From Promethearchaeota archaeon (GTDB lineage: Archaea > Asgardarchaeota > Lokiarchaeia > Sigyniarchaeales > SOKP01), in assembly GCA_030606485.1 (NCBI GenBank), contig JAUWGH010000005.1, positions 300,001 through 332,000 on the forward strand: DNA of 32,000 bases, given 5' to 3'. The notes below the pieces were generated by a model that saw only the letters and a list, made by a program, of their open reading frames with translations, was not told where the DNA came from and searched no databases. Below, one piece after another: positions 4,443-13,226 of this stretch (position 1 is its first letter; every line of letters starts with the position of its first letter). Position numbers and translations under genes: made by a program.

Positions 4443-4640
4443 ATGGATAGTAAAAAAGAAAAAAAAAGACACATGCGCAATATAACTATTAATATACCTG
4501 ATATTTATGATAAAAATCTTTTAAAGCTTCAAAAACTTGGAATGATACCAAGTAGATCAGAAGGCGTAAGGCTTGCTATTAGAAATTTTCTTCAAAACGA
4601 ATACAAAAACCTTAAGATACTAGGCTACTACGAAGAATAA
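4443..4640 (+). CDS. Ribbon-helix-helix (CopG/MetJ/Arc-like) DNA-binding protein
   Basis: NITINIP beta strand followed by helix A and the SRSEGVRLAIRNFL helix-B motif. Confidence 0.8.
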   Translation: MDSKKEKKRHMRNITINIPDIYDKNLLKLQKLGMIPSRSEGVRLAIRNFLQNEYKNLKILGYYEE

Positions 4641-4748: not shown

Positions 4749-5819
4749 TTGAAAGTAATTGGAATAGACCCTGGGAGTAAAAGCTGGGATTTTTTTGGTT
4801 TAGATAATAATTCAATTTTTTTAGATACTTCAATATTAACTAAAAATTTAATGGAAGACCCAGATAAATTTTTTGAAGTAATAGATGGAGTAAAACCTTT
4901 CGATTTAATGGTCGCTCCAAGTGGATTTGGCCTACCATTAAAAAAGGTTCAAGATTTAACAGAAATGGATATGTTTCAGATCTTATTAAAGTTTAAACGA
5001 GATAAAGAAAAAAAAATAGTAGGATTAGGAGAGATTTTAAGAAGAATCAAGGTTGAAAATTATCCAAGTGTAATTGTCCCAAGCGTTAAACATTTACCAA
5101 CAGTGCCAACATATAAAAAAGTCAATAAAATAGATCTGGGAACGGCTGATAAAGTCTGCACGGCTGTTGTTGGTATTCGGGATCAAATTGAGAGTTATAA
5201 TATCACAGCAGAAAAAACAAATTTTATTCTTATTGAAATCGGATTTGGTTTTACAGCTGTTTTAGCTATTGAAAATGGACAAATTATTGATGGCATTGGT
5301 GGTTCAAATATCATGGGAATACATGCTTGTGGAAGTGTTGATGGAGAATTAGCTTATCTAATTGGGGAAATCAAAAAAAAGCATTATTATCAAGGCGGTG
5401 TAGCTTCAATTGCTGGCTATGCGAATTTAAGTCTTCAAGAAGTTGTTCAGTTAGCTAAAAAGGATGCTCAATCCAAATTAGCGATAAACGCATTTATGGA
5501 TAGTATTAAAAAAGCAACCTTTGCAATAACTTCTGCATTTTCTGATAAGAATAAGATTAAAGATATCTTATTAGCGGGAAGAGGGATTGATTTAGAGGTT
5601 ATTAAAGATGATCTTAAAAATACTTTGCACAAGATTGCAAATGTAAGAGAAATGAAAACCTATAGTCAGATTGCTAAGCGTTCAGCTCAAGGTGCAGCAT
5701 TTATTGCGGATGGCCTTCTTGGCGGAAAATTTAAACCAATAATTGACAATTTAAAATTAAAAGATTCATCAGGCTCTGTTTTGGATCATATCTATATACC
5801 ATATGAAAGAAAGGCATAA
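4749..5819 (+). CDS. DUF1464 family ASKHA (actin-like ATPase/kinase fold) protein
   Basis: N-terminal GIDPGSKSWD phosphate-1-like motif, APSGFGLP, NKIDLGTADK, EIGFGFT and C-terminal SAQGAAFIADGLLGG. TTG start. Confidence 0.75.
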   Translation: MKVIGIDPGSKSWDFFGLDNNSIFLDTSILTKNLMEDPDKFFEVIDGVKPFDLMVAPSGFGLPLKKVQDLTEMDMFQILLKFKRDKEKKIVGLGEILRRIKVENYPSVIVPSVKHLPTVPTYKKVNKIDLGTADKVCTAVVGIRDQIESYNITAEKTNFILIEIGFGFTAVLAIENGQIIDGIGGSNIMGIHACGSVDGELAYLIGEIKKKHYYQGGVASIAGYANLSLQEVVQLAKKDAQSKLAINAFMDSIKKATFAITSAFSDKNKIKDILLAGRGIDLEVIKDDLKNTLHKIANVREMKTYSQIAKRSAQGAAFIADGLLGGKFKPIIDNLKLKDSSGSVLDHIYIPYERKA

Positions 5820-5824
5820 AAGCC

Positions 5825-6391
5825 ATGGATAAGGAGAAAAGAAGTAAAATTATATGGGGAATAACAGGTTCTGGCTATTTAATTAAAGAATCAATTGATT
5901 TAATGAAGGAACTACAAAAAAAATATTCAATCGATTTTACGGTAATACTCTCGACTCAAGGAGTAGTGGTTGCAAAGTGGTATCGCCAATGGTTATATTT
6001 AAAAGAAACCATTCAAAAAGTTCAAGTTGAGAAAACTCCAAATAATCCATTTCTTGCGGGACCTCTACAGACCGGTGAATATAAAATGTTAATTGTGTGC
6101 CCTTTAAGTGCTAATTCAGCAGCAAAGATTGCTTATGGTATAGCTGACACGCTTATAACGAATTGCGTTGCACAAACAATTAAAGGTGGTGTTCCAGTTT
6201 ATTTAAATCCTTCTGACCAAGAAGATAAACCAATTGAGACTTATAGACCAAGTGGAGAAAAACTTATATTAAAGATTCGAGAAGTCGAGTTAGAAAACAT
6301 TGAAAGATTAAAAAAGATGGATGGAATTACACTTTTTTCTGATTTGAATGAAATAAAAAGAATAATTCTTGCACAAATAGAAAGTGATTAA
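5825..6391 (+). CDS. afpA: Archaeoflavoprotein AfpA family (HFCD-like FMN flavoprotein; candidate dihydromethanopterin reductase)
   Basis: WGITGSG, PFLAGPLQTGEY, PLSANSAAKIAYGIADTLITN and PSDQ. No CxxC ferredoxin insert. Confidence 0.8.
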   Translation: MDKEKRSKIIWGITGSGYLIKESIDLMKELQKKYSIDFTVILSTQGVVVAKWYRQWLYLKETIQKVQVEKTPNNPFLAGPLQTGEYKMLIVCPLSANSAAKIAYGIADTLITNCVAQTIKGGVPVYLNPSDQEDKPIETYRPSGEKLILKIREVELENIERLKKMDGITLFSDLNEIKRIILAQIESD

Positions 6392-7964
6392 TATAAACAT
6401 TTTAATAATTACTGGAATACAAAGTCTTCAAACTGCACAAAGAATTGCAAATGAAACAAAGAATCATTTTATAGATGTTCTTAAAGCTCCTATCTCCGTA
6501 TCTGCATTTTTAACCGAAGATTTAACAAACCAACTTCTTTTAGAAGAAAAATTAAATCAATATGATATTGTTCTTTTACCAGGTTTTATTCAATGGGATG
6601 CAAGTAATTTAGAAAAAAAATTTTCAATTCCTATTCGTAAAGGTCCGAGATTTTTATCAGATTTACACTCAATCTTAAAAAAAGTAGAAGATTTAAATCT
6701 ATCTAATACAATTCCTGCTTGTGATTTGTTAAAATTTTCAGGTGAAGATCAATATGAAGAAATAGTAAAAAATAGAATAGAATTTGCTCGAAAATCGATC
6801 TCTACTCATACTTTTATCATTAATGATAAATTTCCTGATAAAATTATCGGAAGAGACTTACCTCCTTTAATTATTGCCGAGATTATAAATGCACCACAAA
6901 AGAATTTTAAGCAATTAGATAGAAAAATAGAGCATTATATTTCTTCAGGAGCTGATGTGATTGATCTCGGGTGCACATCGAATAAACCGAATCCTTCAAG
7001 ACTTCAAGAAATTATTGAGTACATTAAAAGCAAATACAATATTCTATTAAGTGCAGATACTCTAAATTCAGAAGAAATTAACGCTGCTATTGATGTAGAT
7101 ATCGACTTAATATTGAGTTTAGATTATGGAAATTATGAGAATCACTTAGATGCACCTAAAAAGCTGCCTTTTGTAATTCTTCCAACTGATACAACAAAGG
7201 CAATAATGCCAAAGATACCAGAAGTTAGAATTGAACGTTTATTTGCTTTAACAGAAATTTTAAAGAAGAAAGGATTTCAAAAACTCATTTTGGATCCTCT
7301 TTTAGAAACACCAATTAATCCGGGATTTATAAACTCTATTAGTGCATATTCGTTATATAATAAGAAAGTTAAAGAAGAGAAATATAAAGAATTAGAATTT
7401 CCCTTATTTTTTGGAATTTCTAATGTTGTTGAGTTAATGGATATAGATTCTATAGGAATTAACGGGCTTTTAGCATGTATTGCCGCAGAGCTTGATATTG
7501 GTGTAATTTTTACGGTTGAACATAGTGCAAAATTATTTAACGGAGTTAATGAATTGAAGAAGGGAATTAAATTAGCATATTTATCTAAATATAAAAAAAT
7601 GCCTCCTATTAATCAAGGAATACAAATTTTTAGTGCAAAAAGTAAAAATAAAGTTGAGTTGCCACAAATAAATAGAAATCAAGCAGTAATATTAAAAGAT
7701 TCAGATGATTACTATCAACCTGATTCGAATGGTTATTTTAAAATTTATACAAACCAATATACAAATGAAATATACGTGCTTCATATTTCAAATGGTCATA
7801 ATCTTTTAAATACAATAGTTGGCAAGAATGCTGAAGATATAAGTAAAAAAATCATAAAGTTAAATCTCACTGCTGATAAATTTCATATTAATTATTTAGG
7901 GCGAGAGTTGAAGAAAGCAGAAATTTGCTTAAAATCAGGTAAATATTATATCCAAGATGAGTAA
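6384..7964 (+). CDS. Archaeal dihydropteroate synthase-related protein (pterin-binding barrel plus C-terminal DUF4346-like domain)
   Basis: IPIRKGP, IIAEI, GADVIDLG, LSADT, ILDPLL, LFFGISNVVELMDIDSIGIN and C-terminal PDSNGYFKI...HINYLGRELKKAEICL. Overlaps afpA by 8 nt. Confidence 0.85.
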   Translation: MININILIITGIQSLQTAQRIANETKNHFIDVLKAPISVSAFLTEDLTNQLLLEEKLNQYDIVLLPGFIQWDASNLEKKFSIPIRKGPRFLSDLHSILKKVEDLNLSNTIPACDLLKFSGEDQYEEIVKNRIEFARKSISTHTFIINDKFPDKIIGRDLPPLIIAEIINAPQKNFKQLDRKIEHYISSGADVIDLGCTSNKPNPSRLQEIIEYIKSKYNILLSADTLNSEEINAAIDVDIDLILSLDYGNYENHLDAPKKLPFVILPTDTTKAIMPKIPEVRIERLFALTEILKKKGFQKLILDPLLETPINPGFINSISAYSLYNKKVKEEKYKELEFPLFFGISNVVELMDIDSIGINGLLACIAAELDIGVIFTVEHSAKLFNGVNELKKGIKLAYLSKYKKMPPINQGIQIFSAKSKNKVELPQINRNQAVILKDSDDYYQPDSNGYFKIYTNQYTNEIYVLHISNGHNLLNTIVGKNAEDISKKIIKLNLTADKFHINYLGRELKKAEICLKSGKYYIQDE

Positions 7965-8146
7965 TTCGTTATTTTTTTTATATGGGAAAAACTCTTCATA
8001 CTCCAATTTTCTTTTGCTTAGTTAAATTAAGGAATATTAAAATTAAACAAAGTGTTTTATTGCTGATACCTAAATCTAATTTTATATTTAAATTTTCTCA
8101 GAAAAATCTGATAAATTATACATTCAAGACAATTAATCGAAAGAAA

Positions 8147-9271
8147 TCAATAATATTTTATTATATTATAAACAGTATCTCTTTGAGCTGGACGTTTTCC
8201 AGCGGATTTAATTATATTGATGATTTCCTCAGGTTTTAAATATTCACCATAATGGGCTCCTGCGCTTCTAGAAATATTTTCTTCCAATAACGTTCCAGAA
8301 AAATCATTTACACCATAATTTAATGAAATTTGAGCAAATCTTGGCCCCAGTTTAACCCAAGAACATTGAATATTATCAATATTATTATTTAAAAATATTC
8401 TTGCAACACAAAACAACTTTAAATCGTCCATACCATAAGTTGGTTTTAACGGATATTGCCTAATTTTTGAAAGCATTGGATTTTCTTTAACATATGGCAA
8501 AAGAACAAATTCTGTTATTCCACTAGTCTCTTTTTGAATGTTTCTTATTATTTCTAAATGTATCATTCTATCTTCTAAGCTTTCTATATGACCATACATT
8601 ATTGTAGATGTTGTTGGAATTTCTAATTTATGTGCGGTAGAAATAATTTCAATCCATTGCTCTGTGGTTATTTTTTTAGGGCATATAATTTTTCTTATTT
8701 CATCATTTAATATTTCTGCTGCAGTCCCTGGTATTGAGTCCAAACCAGCTTTTTTTAATTCTTTCAGCGTATCTTCGAGAGTTAAACCATTTAATTGTGT
8801 CATATAAAAAATTTCTTGTGGTGAAAAAGCATGTGCATGAATCTCAGGGGCGGTACTTTTTACCACTTTTAAAATATCTAAATAAAATTGAAAGTCAACT
8901 TTTGGATTTAACCCTCCTTGAATGCATACTTCTGTACAATTTTTATCTTTTGCTTCAAGAATTTTTTCTTTAATTTCTTCAAGTGATAATAGATAAGCTT
9001 CTTTATGATTTTTTGATACATTAAATGAACAGAATTTACAGCTACTAGTACATATATTTGTGAAATTAATGTTCCGGTTAATTACGAAAGTTACAATATT
9101 TTCTTTTTTCAGAGAACATAGATAATTTGCAACTAATTGTAGCGCTAAAAAATCATTTCCGGAACATTTTAATAACTCTAGTCCTTCAATCTTGGTTATT
9201 TCCTTGGAATTTAATGCTTTATCGAGAATCCTTTCAATTTTTGAATTAGATAATTGGTTTAACTCTACCAT
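8147..9271 (-). CDS. cofH: FO synthase subunit CofH (radical SAM)
   Basis: NRNINFTNICTSSCKFCSF (CxxxCxxC), EVCIQGG, SIPGTAAEIL, NIQCSWVKLG and EENISRSAG; adjacent to cofG. Confidence 0.9.
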   Translation of the reverse strand: MVELNQLSNSKIERILDKALNSKEITKIEGLELLKCSGNDFLALQLVANYLCSLKKENIVTFVINRNINFTNICTSSCKFCSFNVSKNHKEAYLLSLEEIKEKILEAKDKNCTEVCIQGGLNPKVDFQFYLDILKVVKSTAPEIHAHAFSPQEIFYMTQLNGLTLEDTLKELKKAGLDSIPGTAAEILNDEIRKIICPKKITTEQWIEIISTAHKLEIPTTSTIMYGHIESLEDRMIHLEIIRNIQKETSGITEFVLLPYVKENPMLSKIRQYPLKPTYGMDDLKLFCVARIFLNNNIDNIQCSWVKLGPRFAQISLNYGVNDFSGTLLEENISRSAGAHYGEYLKPEEIINIIKSAGKRPAQRDTVYNIIKYY

Positions 9272-12251: not shown

Positions 12252-13226
12252 GTGATAATTATTTCTAATGAATTTCGAAAAGATTTACAAGATTCCTATT
12301 CTCCTTTAGACGTAGCTATTGATAAAGTTGGTATAATTGGACTCAGAAAAAAAATAGATATAGTAAAAGGCAATTACAAATACTCATTCTACCCAAAGAT
12401 ATCAGCTTTAATTAGTCTCCCGGCAAAACAGAGAGGTATTCATATGAGTAGAACTTCTGAAACAATTGAAGAAGTAATTAATGAAGTTATTTTTAAGCCC
12501 ACTCCAACTATAGAAGTAGTCGCTGATCGGATTATAAAAAAATTATTAAAAAAGCATAAATACACTTTAAAAGTTCATGTGGAGCTTGAGGGCGATATTG
12601 TTATTCAAGTAAGAGAGACTGAGAAAAATAATGTCCAAAAATCTTATTATATAAAAACTGTAGCTAATGGAATAAAACAAGATAATGGAGAAGTTAGGTA
12701 TAAATATTTCATTGGAGTTAGCGCGGTTGGTCTTAATGTATGTCCCTGTAGTATGGAGATGAGTAGAGAATTTGTAGAAGATTTTATTAAAGCAAGAAGA
12801 GATATTAAGATTTCAGAAATTGATTTAAAAAAGTTACTGAACATTCTTCCTGTTTCATCACACAATCAAAGAGCGAAAGGAACAATTACGGTTGAGATTG
12901 ATGATGTAGATATAAACTCTATAGATATAATTGATTTGATAAATATAATTGAAAACTCTATGAGTGGTAAGATAAGTTCTGTCTTAAAACGACCTGAAGA
13001 AGCGGAATTGGTTCGAGTCGCTCATCTTAAACCTTTGTTTGCAGAAGATGCCGTAAGAGAAATGGCTAAAAATTTTATTAAAAAAGATTTTATAAATTTA
13101 AAGGATAAGTTTAGTGTAAAATTTGAAATTACTAGTTTTGAAAGCATTCACTCCTATGATGTTTTTGCTGAACTGAATACAACAATAGGAGAATTAAAAA
13201 AAATCATTAAAGATATAAAAAATTAG
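12252..13226 (+). CDS. mptA: GTP cyclohydrolase MptA (FolE2/GCYH-IB family)
   Basis: RGIHMSR, VCPC, SHNQRA, SVLKRPEE...FAEDAVR and ESIHSYD. GTG start. Confidence 0.9.
   Translation: MIIISNEFRKDLQDSYSPLDVAIDKVGIIGLRKKIDIVKGNYKYSFYPKISALISLPAKQRGIHMSRTSETIEEVINEVIFKPTPTIEVVADRIIKKLLKKHKYTLKVHVELEGDIVIQVRETEKNNVQKSYYIKTVANGIKQDNGEVRYKYFIGVSAVGLNVCPCSMEMSREFVEDFIKARRDIKISEIDLKKLLNILPVSSHNQRAKGTITVEIDDVDINSIDIIDLINIIENSMSGKISSVLKRPEEAELVRVAHLKPLFAEDAVREMAKNFIKKDFINLKDKFSVKFEITSFESIHSYDVFAELNTTIGELKKIIKDIKN

Follow-up and report, generated by a model that had tools for sequence, protein, structure and literature searches.

The window, by which we mean the whole 32,000-nt stretch of Asgard DNA analysed here, contains a three-gene operon that is headed by a DUF1464 gene and continues with afpA and then a DHPS-like gene of the TIGR00284 family (Table 1). 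The three genes are co-oriented on the forward strand, as the preliminary description had it, with a gap of 5 nt (5820-5824) after the first and an overlap of 8 nt between the second and the third. The DUF1464 reading frame matches Pfam PF07318 at 302.1 bits (cut-off 23.5) over its full length (profile positions 1-325 of 327) and is the single PF07318 copy in this genome. Residues 4-10 of its translation read IGIDPGS, which is the motif noticed earlier. The product of afpA scores 193.6 bits against TIGR02699, barely over the cut-off of 192.45, and AfpA/DmrB relatives are dihydromethanopterin reductases (PMC6193120). The third reading frame matches TIGR00284 at 273 bits (cut-off 256.65) as well as Pfam PF20123, PF00809 and PF14251, and its product is laid out as an N-terminal DUF6513, a pterin-binding TIM barrel and a C-terminal DUF4346; the central domain of its predicted structure (pLDDT 88.6) matches DHPS and methyltetrahydrofolate methyltransferases (MeTr). 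Farther along the island, before mptA, lie cofH, cofG, arfC and an amidohydrolase gene on the opposite strand.

Table 1. Features of the window and of the compared loci (positions in the window or, after a locus number, in that locus)
Feature	Position	Strand	Description
Ribbon-helix-helix gene	4443-4640	+	65 aa, upstream of DUF1464
DUF1464 gene	4749-5819	+	356 aa, TTG start; ASKHA-fold, butyrate-kinase-like predicted ATP-dependent enzyme
afpA	5825-6391	+	Archaeoflavoprotein of the FMN-binding flavoprotein family that includes DmrB and DmrX; TIGR02699 and Pfam Flavoprotein
DHPS-like TIGR00284 gene	6384-7964	+	GTG start; DUF6513, Pterin_bind and PterinBD-DUF4346
85-aa reading frame	7982-8239	+	Probably not a gene
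mptA	12252-13226	+	First enzyme of the pterin branch, a GTP cyclohydrolase; TIGR00294 at 235 bits (cut-off 220); same cofactor island
DUF1464/DHPS-like junction, Asgard	L005:11076-11095		One of 41 such loci
DUF1464/DHPS-like junction, Asgard	L004:6967-6986		One of the same 41 loci
DUF1464/DHPS-like junction, Asgard	L013:11073-11092		One of the same 41 loci
Multicopy locus	L099:6568-12807		Three DUF1464 paralogues and two MptG-like genes
GTP cyclohydrolase fusion	L073:6531-8003		Bacterial H4MPT cluster
GTP cyclohydrolase fusion	L076:7116-8570		Bacterial H4MPT cluster
ftsZ and DHPS-like gene	L108:6923-9634		Same strand, DUF1464 absent
ftsZ and DHPS-like gene	L109:8053-10838		Same strand, DUF1464 absent
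ftsZ and DHPS-like gene	L110:7007-9794		Same strand, DUF1464 absent
ftsZ and DHPS-like gene	L111:6895-9760		Same strand, DUF1464 absent
ftsZ and DHPS-like gene	L112:8084-10946		Same strand, DUF1464 absent
Caldisericota locus			DUF447, GHMP (MptG-like), HPPK-MptA fusion, AfpA, DHPS-like, DUF1464
Delta-proteobacterial locus			HPPK-MptA, DHPS-like, DUF1464, Ftr
Desulfobacteraceae locus			ATP-grasp, DUF1464, ..., Hydantoinase_A
Methylarchaceae locus			NTP-transferase, MptE-like, DUF1464
Metagenomic contig 1			Fhc/Ftr/Mch, ATP-grasp, CitG, MptA, DUF1464, FolB, HPPK; DHPS-like and AfpA on the other strand
Metagenomic contig 2			MfnF, MfnE, MfnB, ..., DUF1464, DmrX, DHPS-like, CitG, MptG, MptA, ..., Ftr
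Complete 2.8-Mb Sulfolobales-like genome			DHPS-like, MptD, MptE, MptA / orf125, DUF447, MptG / DUF1464

Two small reading frames flank the operon. The ribbon-helix-helix gene upstream was considered as a further member and rejected, being conserved only in the closest relatives (L001, L003); its product resembles the haloarchaeal cell-division regulator CdrS weakly, at 19.8 bits and far under the cut-off. The 85-aa frame downstream matches no family, runs into the 3' end of cofH, which is encoded on the opposite strand, and gave one weak match (29 bits) in a single Asgard locus (L036).

The DUF1464 family and its predicted fold

DUF1464 proteins form 545 clusters at 50% identity among 1.8 billion proteins, and identity is about 64% across those that the source databases name Loki-, Thor- and Hermodarchaeota. 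In the literature we found DUF1464 (COG2441) mentioned only incidentally, and nothing on DUF4346, DUF6513 or TIGR00284. Residue conservation was read from an alignment of 57 diverse homologues, in which D7, G9, D129, G131, D134, K135, E163, G165 and G315 are invariant. These residues include D7 and G9 of the phosphate-1 motif GIDPGS and E163 and G165 of the phosphate-2 motif ExGxG; on the adenosine side, G315 is accompanied by G277 (in LLAGRG), which is kept in at least 90% of the homologues. Domain I adds two invariant motifs that are specific to the family, PSG[YF]G and D129-x-G-T-x-D134-K135. No cysteine is conserved across the 57 aligned sequences.

Structure prediction with AlphaFold, one of the checks listed in the preliminary description, gave high confidence (pLDDT 95.3, pTM 0.94) and the two-domain architecture that is canonical for ASKHA proteins, a superfamily of acetate and sugar kinases, Hsp70 and actin; the RNase-H-like domains of the model show the beta-beta-beta-alpha-beta-alpha-beta-alpha succession in the expected order. 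A Foldseek search of this model against the PDB returned at least 500 matches at E<=0.001, of which the best 50 are all ASKHA kinases. Butyrate kinase 2 and acetate/propionate kinases come on top (TM about 0.6, 12-18% identity) and sugar kinases next, so that the best of the matches listed are small-molecule kinases. A sequence profile search of the PDB and a language-model search of a protein atlas also lead to butyrate and acetate kinases; the PDB profile match spans only the C-terminal nucleotide-binding domain (E about 1e-6). The JGI automatic name is, similarly, 'predicted butyrate kinase'. The acetate-kinase profile PF00871 gave no match in a Pfam scan at E<=0.01, which returned DUF1464 alone, nor did any NCBIfam model match the protein, TIGR03123 of MfnF included. 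Fused forms longer than 624 aa were looked for and none was found, which is only weak evidence.

The missing PF00871 and NCBIfam matches, together with the intact nucleotide site, mark DUF1464 as a separate ASKHA family, for which ATP-dependent phosphoryl transfer is therefore the default mechanism. Judged from the alignment and the model, such a transfer is what we would expect of the protein, and DUF1464 is a distant relative of the butyrate and acetate kinases that stands outside their family. That family (PF00871) is represented here by butyrate kinase 2 from Thermotoga maritima and by acetate/propionate kinases (PDB 1saz, 1x9j, 1g99). These enzymes are likewise two-domain ASKHA proteins of similar size, provide the best structural and the sole significant PDB sequence matches, and share the nucleotide-binding motifs. 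Unlike them, DUF1464 carries the PSG[YF]G and D-x-G-T-x-D-K motifs and occurs in the context of cofactor synthesis instead of fermentation. The carboxylate site of the acetate kinase of M. thermophila is formed by the catalytic residues Arg, Arg and His; the N-terminal domain of DUF1464 gave no sequence alignment with these kinases. A second point of comparison is MfnF (MJ0840, TIGR03123), the hydantoinase-A-like enzyme of methanofuran synthesis, which is also an ASKHA protein recruited to C1 cofactor synthesis and found in the same islands; MfnF belongs to a different family, and the two co-occur.

Pathway content and gene neighbourhood

The host genome (3.75 Mb, about 28% G+C, completeness estimate 100%) encodes MptG (306 bits) adjoined by MptD, an MptE-like protein, an MptB-like protein (159 bits, under the cut-off of 172), Ftr and a canonical FolP-type DHPS. 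With MptG, MptD, the MptE-like and MptB-like proteins and Ftr present, the organism can be taken to use the H4MPT pathway. No chorismate-binding enzyme (PF00425: TrpE, PabB, isochorismate synthase) was detected in this genome, while all 14 control genomes were positive; the host therefore lacks the ADC-synthase route to pABA, an absence that fits the need for a later amination step. In Sulfolobus acidocaldarius, which has DUF1464, we found neither Ftr nor TIGR03123 and no match to Pterin_bind (PF00809), and the TIGR00284 protein, scoring over the cut-off, is the sole DHPS-type protein detected. In a Sulfolobales-like cluster, moreover, the TIGR00284 gene comes after MptA, MptE and MptD. TIGR00284 may therefore be the real DHPS-equivalent condensing enzyme in Sulfolobus-type archaea.

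Gene neighbourhoods were compared in 80 loci from species-representative genomes, comprising 56 Asgard and 24 distant loci; the titles of the latter name Promethearchaeum, Lokiarchaeum, Baldr-, Jord- and Helarchaeota, Thermoproteota, Bathyarchaeota, Nitrososphaerales, Methanoperedenaceae, Anaerolineae, Caldisericota and delta-proteobacteria. Of the 56 Asgard loci, 55 have the DHPS-like gene downstream of DUF1464, immediately so in 53 and after afpA in 2, and cofH, cofG, arfC, the amidohydrolase gene and mptA are also nearby in most of them. Among the 24 distant loci, the DHPS-like gene is adjacent or nearby in 13 and MptA in 10; over the whole set, 42 of 80 loci have MptA no more than 10 kb from DUF1464. 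Since the pairing of DUF1464 with the DHPS-like gene recurs across phyla, the operon arrangement is not a chance juxtaposition. Neighbours in distant archaea and bacteria are MptA, MptG, MptD/MptE or FolB/HPPK and DmrX/AfpA, to which DUF447, CitG-like, ATP-grasp and Ftr/Mch genes are added (Table 1). DUF1464 also occurs beside MptG without a DHPS-like gene, is followed directly by cofG and cofH in two genomes, and stands on its own in some others, for example in one of 2,178,400 bp.

One locus (L099) brings together several copies. In its run MptG, DUF1464, DUF1464 the MptG-like and DUF1464 reading frames overlap, and the second MptG-like gene lies beside it. In the phylum sample to which L099 belongs, several other genomes contain between two and four matches to DUF1464, some of them arranged in tandem. 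Such multiple copies hint at hetero-oligomers or at specialisation for different substrates. In two bacterial H4MPT clusters (L073, L076), HPPK, the bacterial-type pterin pyrophosphokinase, is fused to an MptA/FolE2-type GTP cyclohydrolase in a protein of about 485-490 aa.

The junction between the two partner genes has an unusual structure in L005 and 40 other Asgard loci. The conserved N-terminus of the DHPS-like protein is encoded there without an ATG, GTG or TTG start: the junction reads GTGATYTAR followed immediately by ATTAA, so that the upstream GTG meets an in-frame TAG or TAA two codons later, and a conserved ATT codon of the DHPS-like gene shares one base with the TAA stop codon that ends DUF1464 (AUUAA). 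As read from these sequences, the arrangement suggests that the DHPS-like gene is coupled to DUF1464 by AUU-initiated termination-reinitiation. A fusion by +1 frameshifting seems less likely because the last DUF1464 codon varies (AAT versus GAT). Automatic gene callers will truncate or miss the DHPS-like gene at such junctions.

Co-occurrence was assessed by comparing lists of matches in two samples. Among 200 genomes of the phylum that holds the 'Thermoproteota' locus, DUF1464 is present in 77, TIGR00284 in 87 and both in 76; in the sole genome with DUF1464 and without TIGR00284, DUF1464 lies about 180 nt from a contig end. A scatter over genomes lacking H4MPT, methanofuran or modified-folate pathways with no recurring linkage, which the preliminary description had named as speaking against its proposal, is not what we see: linkage recurs in unrelated lineages, and all but one of the 77 genomes contain TIGR00284. 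MptG scored over the cut-off in each of five diverse DUF1464 genomes tested. The second sample consists of 201 genomes of the phylum that holds the Methanoperedenaceae genome, and here DUF1464 is found in 46 and absent from about three quarters. A single one of the 14 named controls, S. acidocaldarius, has it; no match was detected in M. jannaschii, M. acetivorans or H. volcanii. The first two of these three are makers of methanopterin or sarcinapterin that carry TIGR00284 and MptG, even though DUF1464 was not detected in them. Its absence from these H4MPT makers means that DUF1464 is not universally required, unless unrelated enzymes replace it; where it is absent, it either represents an accessory step or its step is done by an unrelated enzyme.

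In five methanogen-type genomes of the 201-genome sample without DUF1464 (L108 to L112), ftsZ (Tubulin and FtsZ_C) lies directly upstream of the DHPS-like gene, and no kinase-like gene takes the place of DUF1464. We had not expected to see a cell-division gene paired in this conserved way with the gene of a pterin-binding protein.

Could DUF1464 stand in for an enzyme with a known place in these pathways? The preliminary description had suggested a check for mutual exclusivity with mfnF, which does not hold: the host has a separate TIGR03123 gene (305.8 bits), and MfnF-type (Hydantoinase_A) genes occur in the same clusters. Substitution for MptE/HPPK or MptD/FolB was rejected on finding these genes together with DUF1464 in the host genome and in the same operons, and substitution for the cyclic phosphodiesterase MptB was rejected in view of the MptB-like gene of the host and of MptB in 33 of the 46 DUF1464 genomes of the second sample, two lists being compared. 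Co-occurring with all of these proteins, DUF1464 replaces none of them.

Candidate function and rival explanations

We conclude that DUF1464 is probably a soluble phosphotransferase-type ASKHA enzyme devoted to making a pterin cofactor of the tetrahydromethanopterin type. The preliminary description had put it forward as a candidate ATP-dependent enzyme of H4MPT-type synthesis, and linkage, co-occurrence and the intact ASKHA motifs all speak for that candidacy. The companions that recur across lineages, MptG, the DHPS-like protein, MptA and DmrX/AfpA, build the pterin and the aryl-ribose, MptG making the aryl-ribose phosphate and DmrX/AfpA being the final reductase. The link to cofactor synthesis is strong, and we infer that the protein belongs to the H4MPT pathway. 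The methanofuran alternative offered in the same description fares less well than its H4MPT counterpart, because the immediate partners of DUF1464 make the pterin and aryl-ribose portion.

In the most likely mechanism, the enzyme would bind MgATP in its interdomain cleft and would use the gamma-phosphate to phosphorylate an intermediate of the pathway on an oxygen, thereby activating that intermediate for the next reaction. White's work of 1996 and 2011 reportedly describes two ATP-requiring H4MPT reactions that have no gene: in one, beta-RFH-P is turned into beta-RFA-P at the expense of ATP and aspartate, and in the other, hydroxyglutarate is attached to the cofactor tail. We know of no gene assigned to the amination of beta-RFH-P to beta-RFA-P. 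The identity of the substrate lies beyond the reach of gene neighbourhood, and it is as our leading but tentative proposal, of rather low probability, that we suggest that DUF1464 activates 4-(beta-D-ribofuranosyl)hydroxybenzene 5'-phosphate, which MptG produces, at its phenolic oxygen for a phenol-to-aniline amination to beta-RFA-P. ATP-dependent activation of the phenol of beta-RFH-P would allow an amine to replace the hydroxyl, and the DUF1464 product would go on to the TIGR00284 partner, the DHPS-like protein, which in most archaea would then be the true enzyme for condensing pterin and arylamine. We make this proposal because the neighbours favour it, as do the co-duplication of MptG and DUF1464 and a gene order that runs MptG, DUF1464, (reductase), DHPS-like. 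The main objection comes from M. jannaschii, in which the phenol-to-aniline chemistry has reportedly been demonstrated and which lacks DUF1464. A predicted complex of DUF1464 with the DHPS-like protein scored 0.00 in a run without controls and counts neither for nor against binding.

ASKHA reactivases and activases that act on partner enzymes exist, and DUF1464 could by analogy be a non-kinase ATPase (an assembly factor, activase or chaperone) that serves the DHPS-like protein, DmrX/AfpA or both. The stop-start overlap in the 41 Asgard loci, which points to a tight translational coupling to the DHPS-like gene, would suit such a partner, as would the dispensability of DUF1464 in methanogens that keep the DHPS-like gene. 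We nevertheless regard this role as unlikely: the closest structures among the matches listed are small-molecule kinases, the gene is also found alone and beside MptG with no DHPS-like gene, and the lack of a conserved cysteine makes an Fe-S activase of the HgdC/BcrAD type unlikely. Action in the synthesis of F420/FO (for instance as a hydroxy-acid kinase) or of methanofuran instead of H4MPT is very unlikely. The cofG-cofH pair directly after DUF1464 in two genomes, cofG, cofH and arfC in the Asgard island, and MfnF, MfnE and MfnB in the same super-clusters on some contigs would agree with it, but bacterial DUF1464 clusters consist of pterin and MptG genes without cof genes, DUF1464 co-occurs with TIGR00284 and MptG, S. 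acidocaldarius has DUF1464 and neither Ftr nor TIGR03123, and the host possesses its own MfnF.

A role in ATP-dependent C1 loading of H4MPT appears less probable still. Here DUF1464 would be a formate or small-carboxylate kinase whose acyl-phosphate goes to the pterin that the DHPS-like protein binds, in analogy to formyl-tetrahydrofolate synthetase, and would not be a biosynthetic enzyme. Such a reaction would match the carboxylate kinases that are the nearest characterised relatives among the matches listed, the pterin-binding TIM barrel of the partner, which is the fold of folate-dependent methyltransferases, and the Ftr, Mch and Fhc neighbours in bacterial loci. It fits poorly, however, with the biosynthetic nature of the most constant neighbours (MptA, MptG, MptD/MptE, HPPK/FolB), with the methanogens that have TIGR00284 and no DUF1464, and with the Ftr route already present in the host. 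Finally, an ordinary fermentative butyrate kinase, as the JGI name and the weak sequence and fold similarity to Buk2 would have it, is hardly credible given the absence of an acetate-kinase Pfam match at E<=0.01, the low identity (16-18%) and the confinement of the sequence match to the C-terminal nucleotide-binding domain. Phosphotransbutyrylase or fermentation genes appear in no annotated neighbourhood, and every informative locus has a cofactor-synthesis context.

Relation to known systems and significance

As a carrier of C1 units, H4MPT serves methanogenesis, the anaerobic oxidation of methane, the oxidation of formaldehyde by bacteria and the Wood-Ljungdahl pathway of Asgard archaea. In the H4MPT islands of methylotrophic bacteria, orf20 is presumably the DHPS-like gene, and to our knowledge DUF1464 is not part of the described proteobacterial H4MPT gene set. 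The 'archaeal-type' island orf19-orf20-afpA-orf21-orf22 of these bacteria places afpA among genes of the H4MPT pathway and its biosynthesis (PMC3615186). Compared with these islands, DUF1464 is an extra constant member of the cluster, both here and in many non-proteobacterial lineages.

As far as we know, only some of the gaps in methanopterin biosynthesis have been filled since 2011. An inventory of that year estimated that seven proteins of the pathway were unknown (PMC3087415). The genomic signal of DUF1464 is among the clearest for any orphan of the H4MPT pathway, and the protein is a well-supported candidate for an unassigned methanopterin step. The family is compact and present in the genetically tractable Sulfolobus. 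Were phenol activation true, the biological conversion of phenol to aniline during methanopterin synthesis would gain its first gene with DUF1464. Its assignment would probably also assign the DHPS-like TIGR00284 partner, and assigning the two would fill one of the pathway's gaps and make for better metabolic reconstruction of Asgard and other uncultured archaea.
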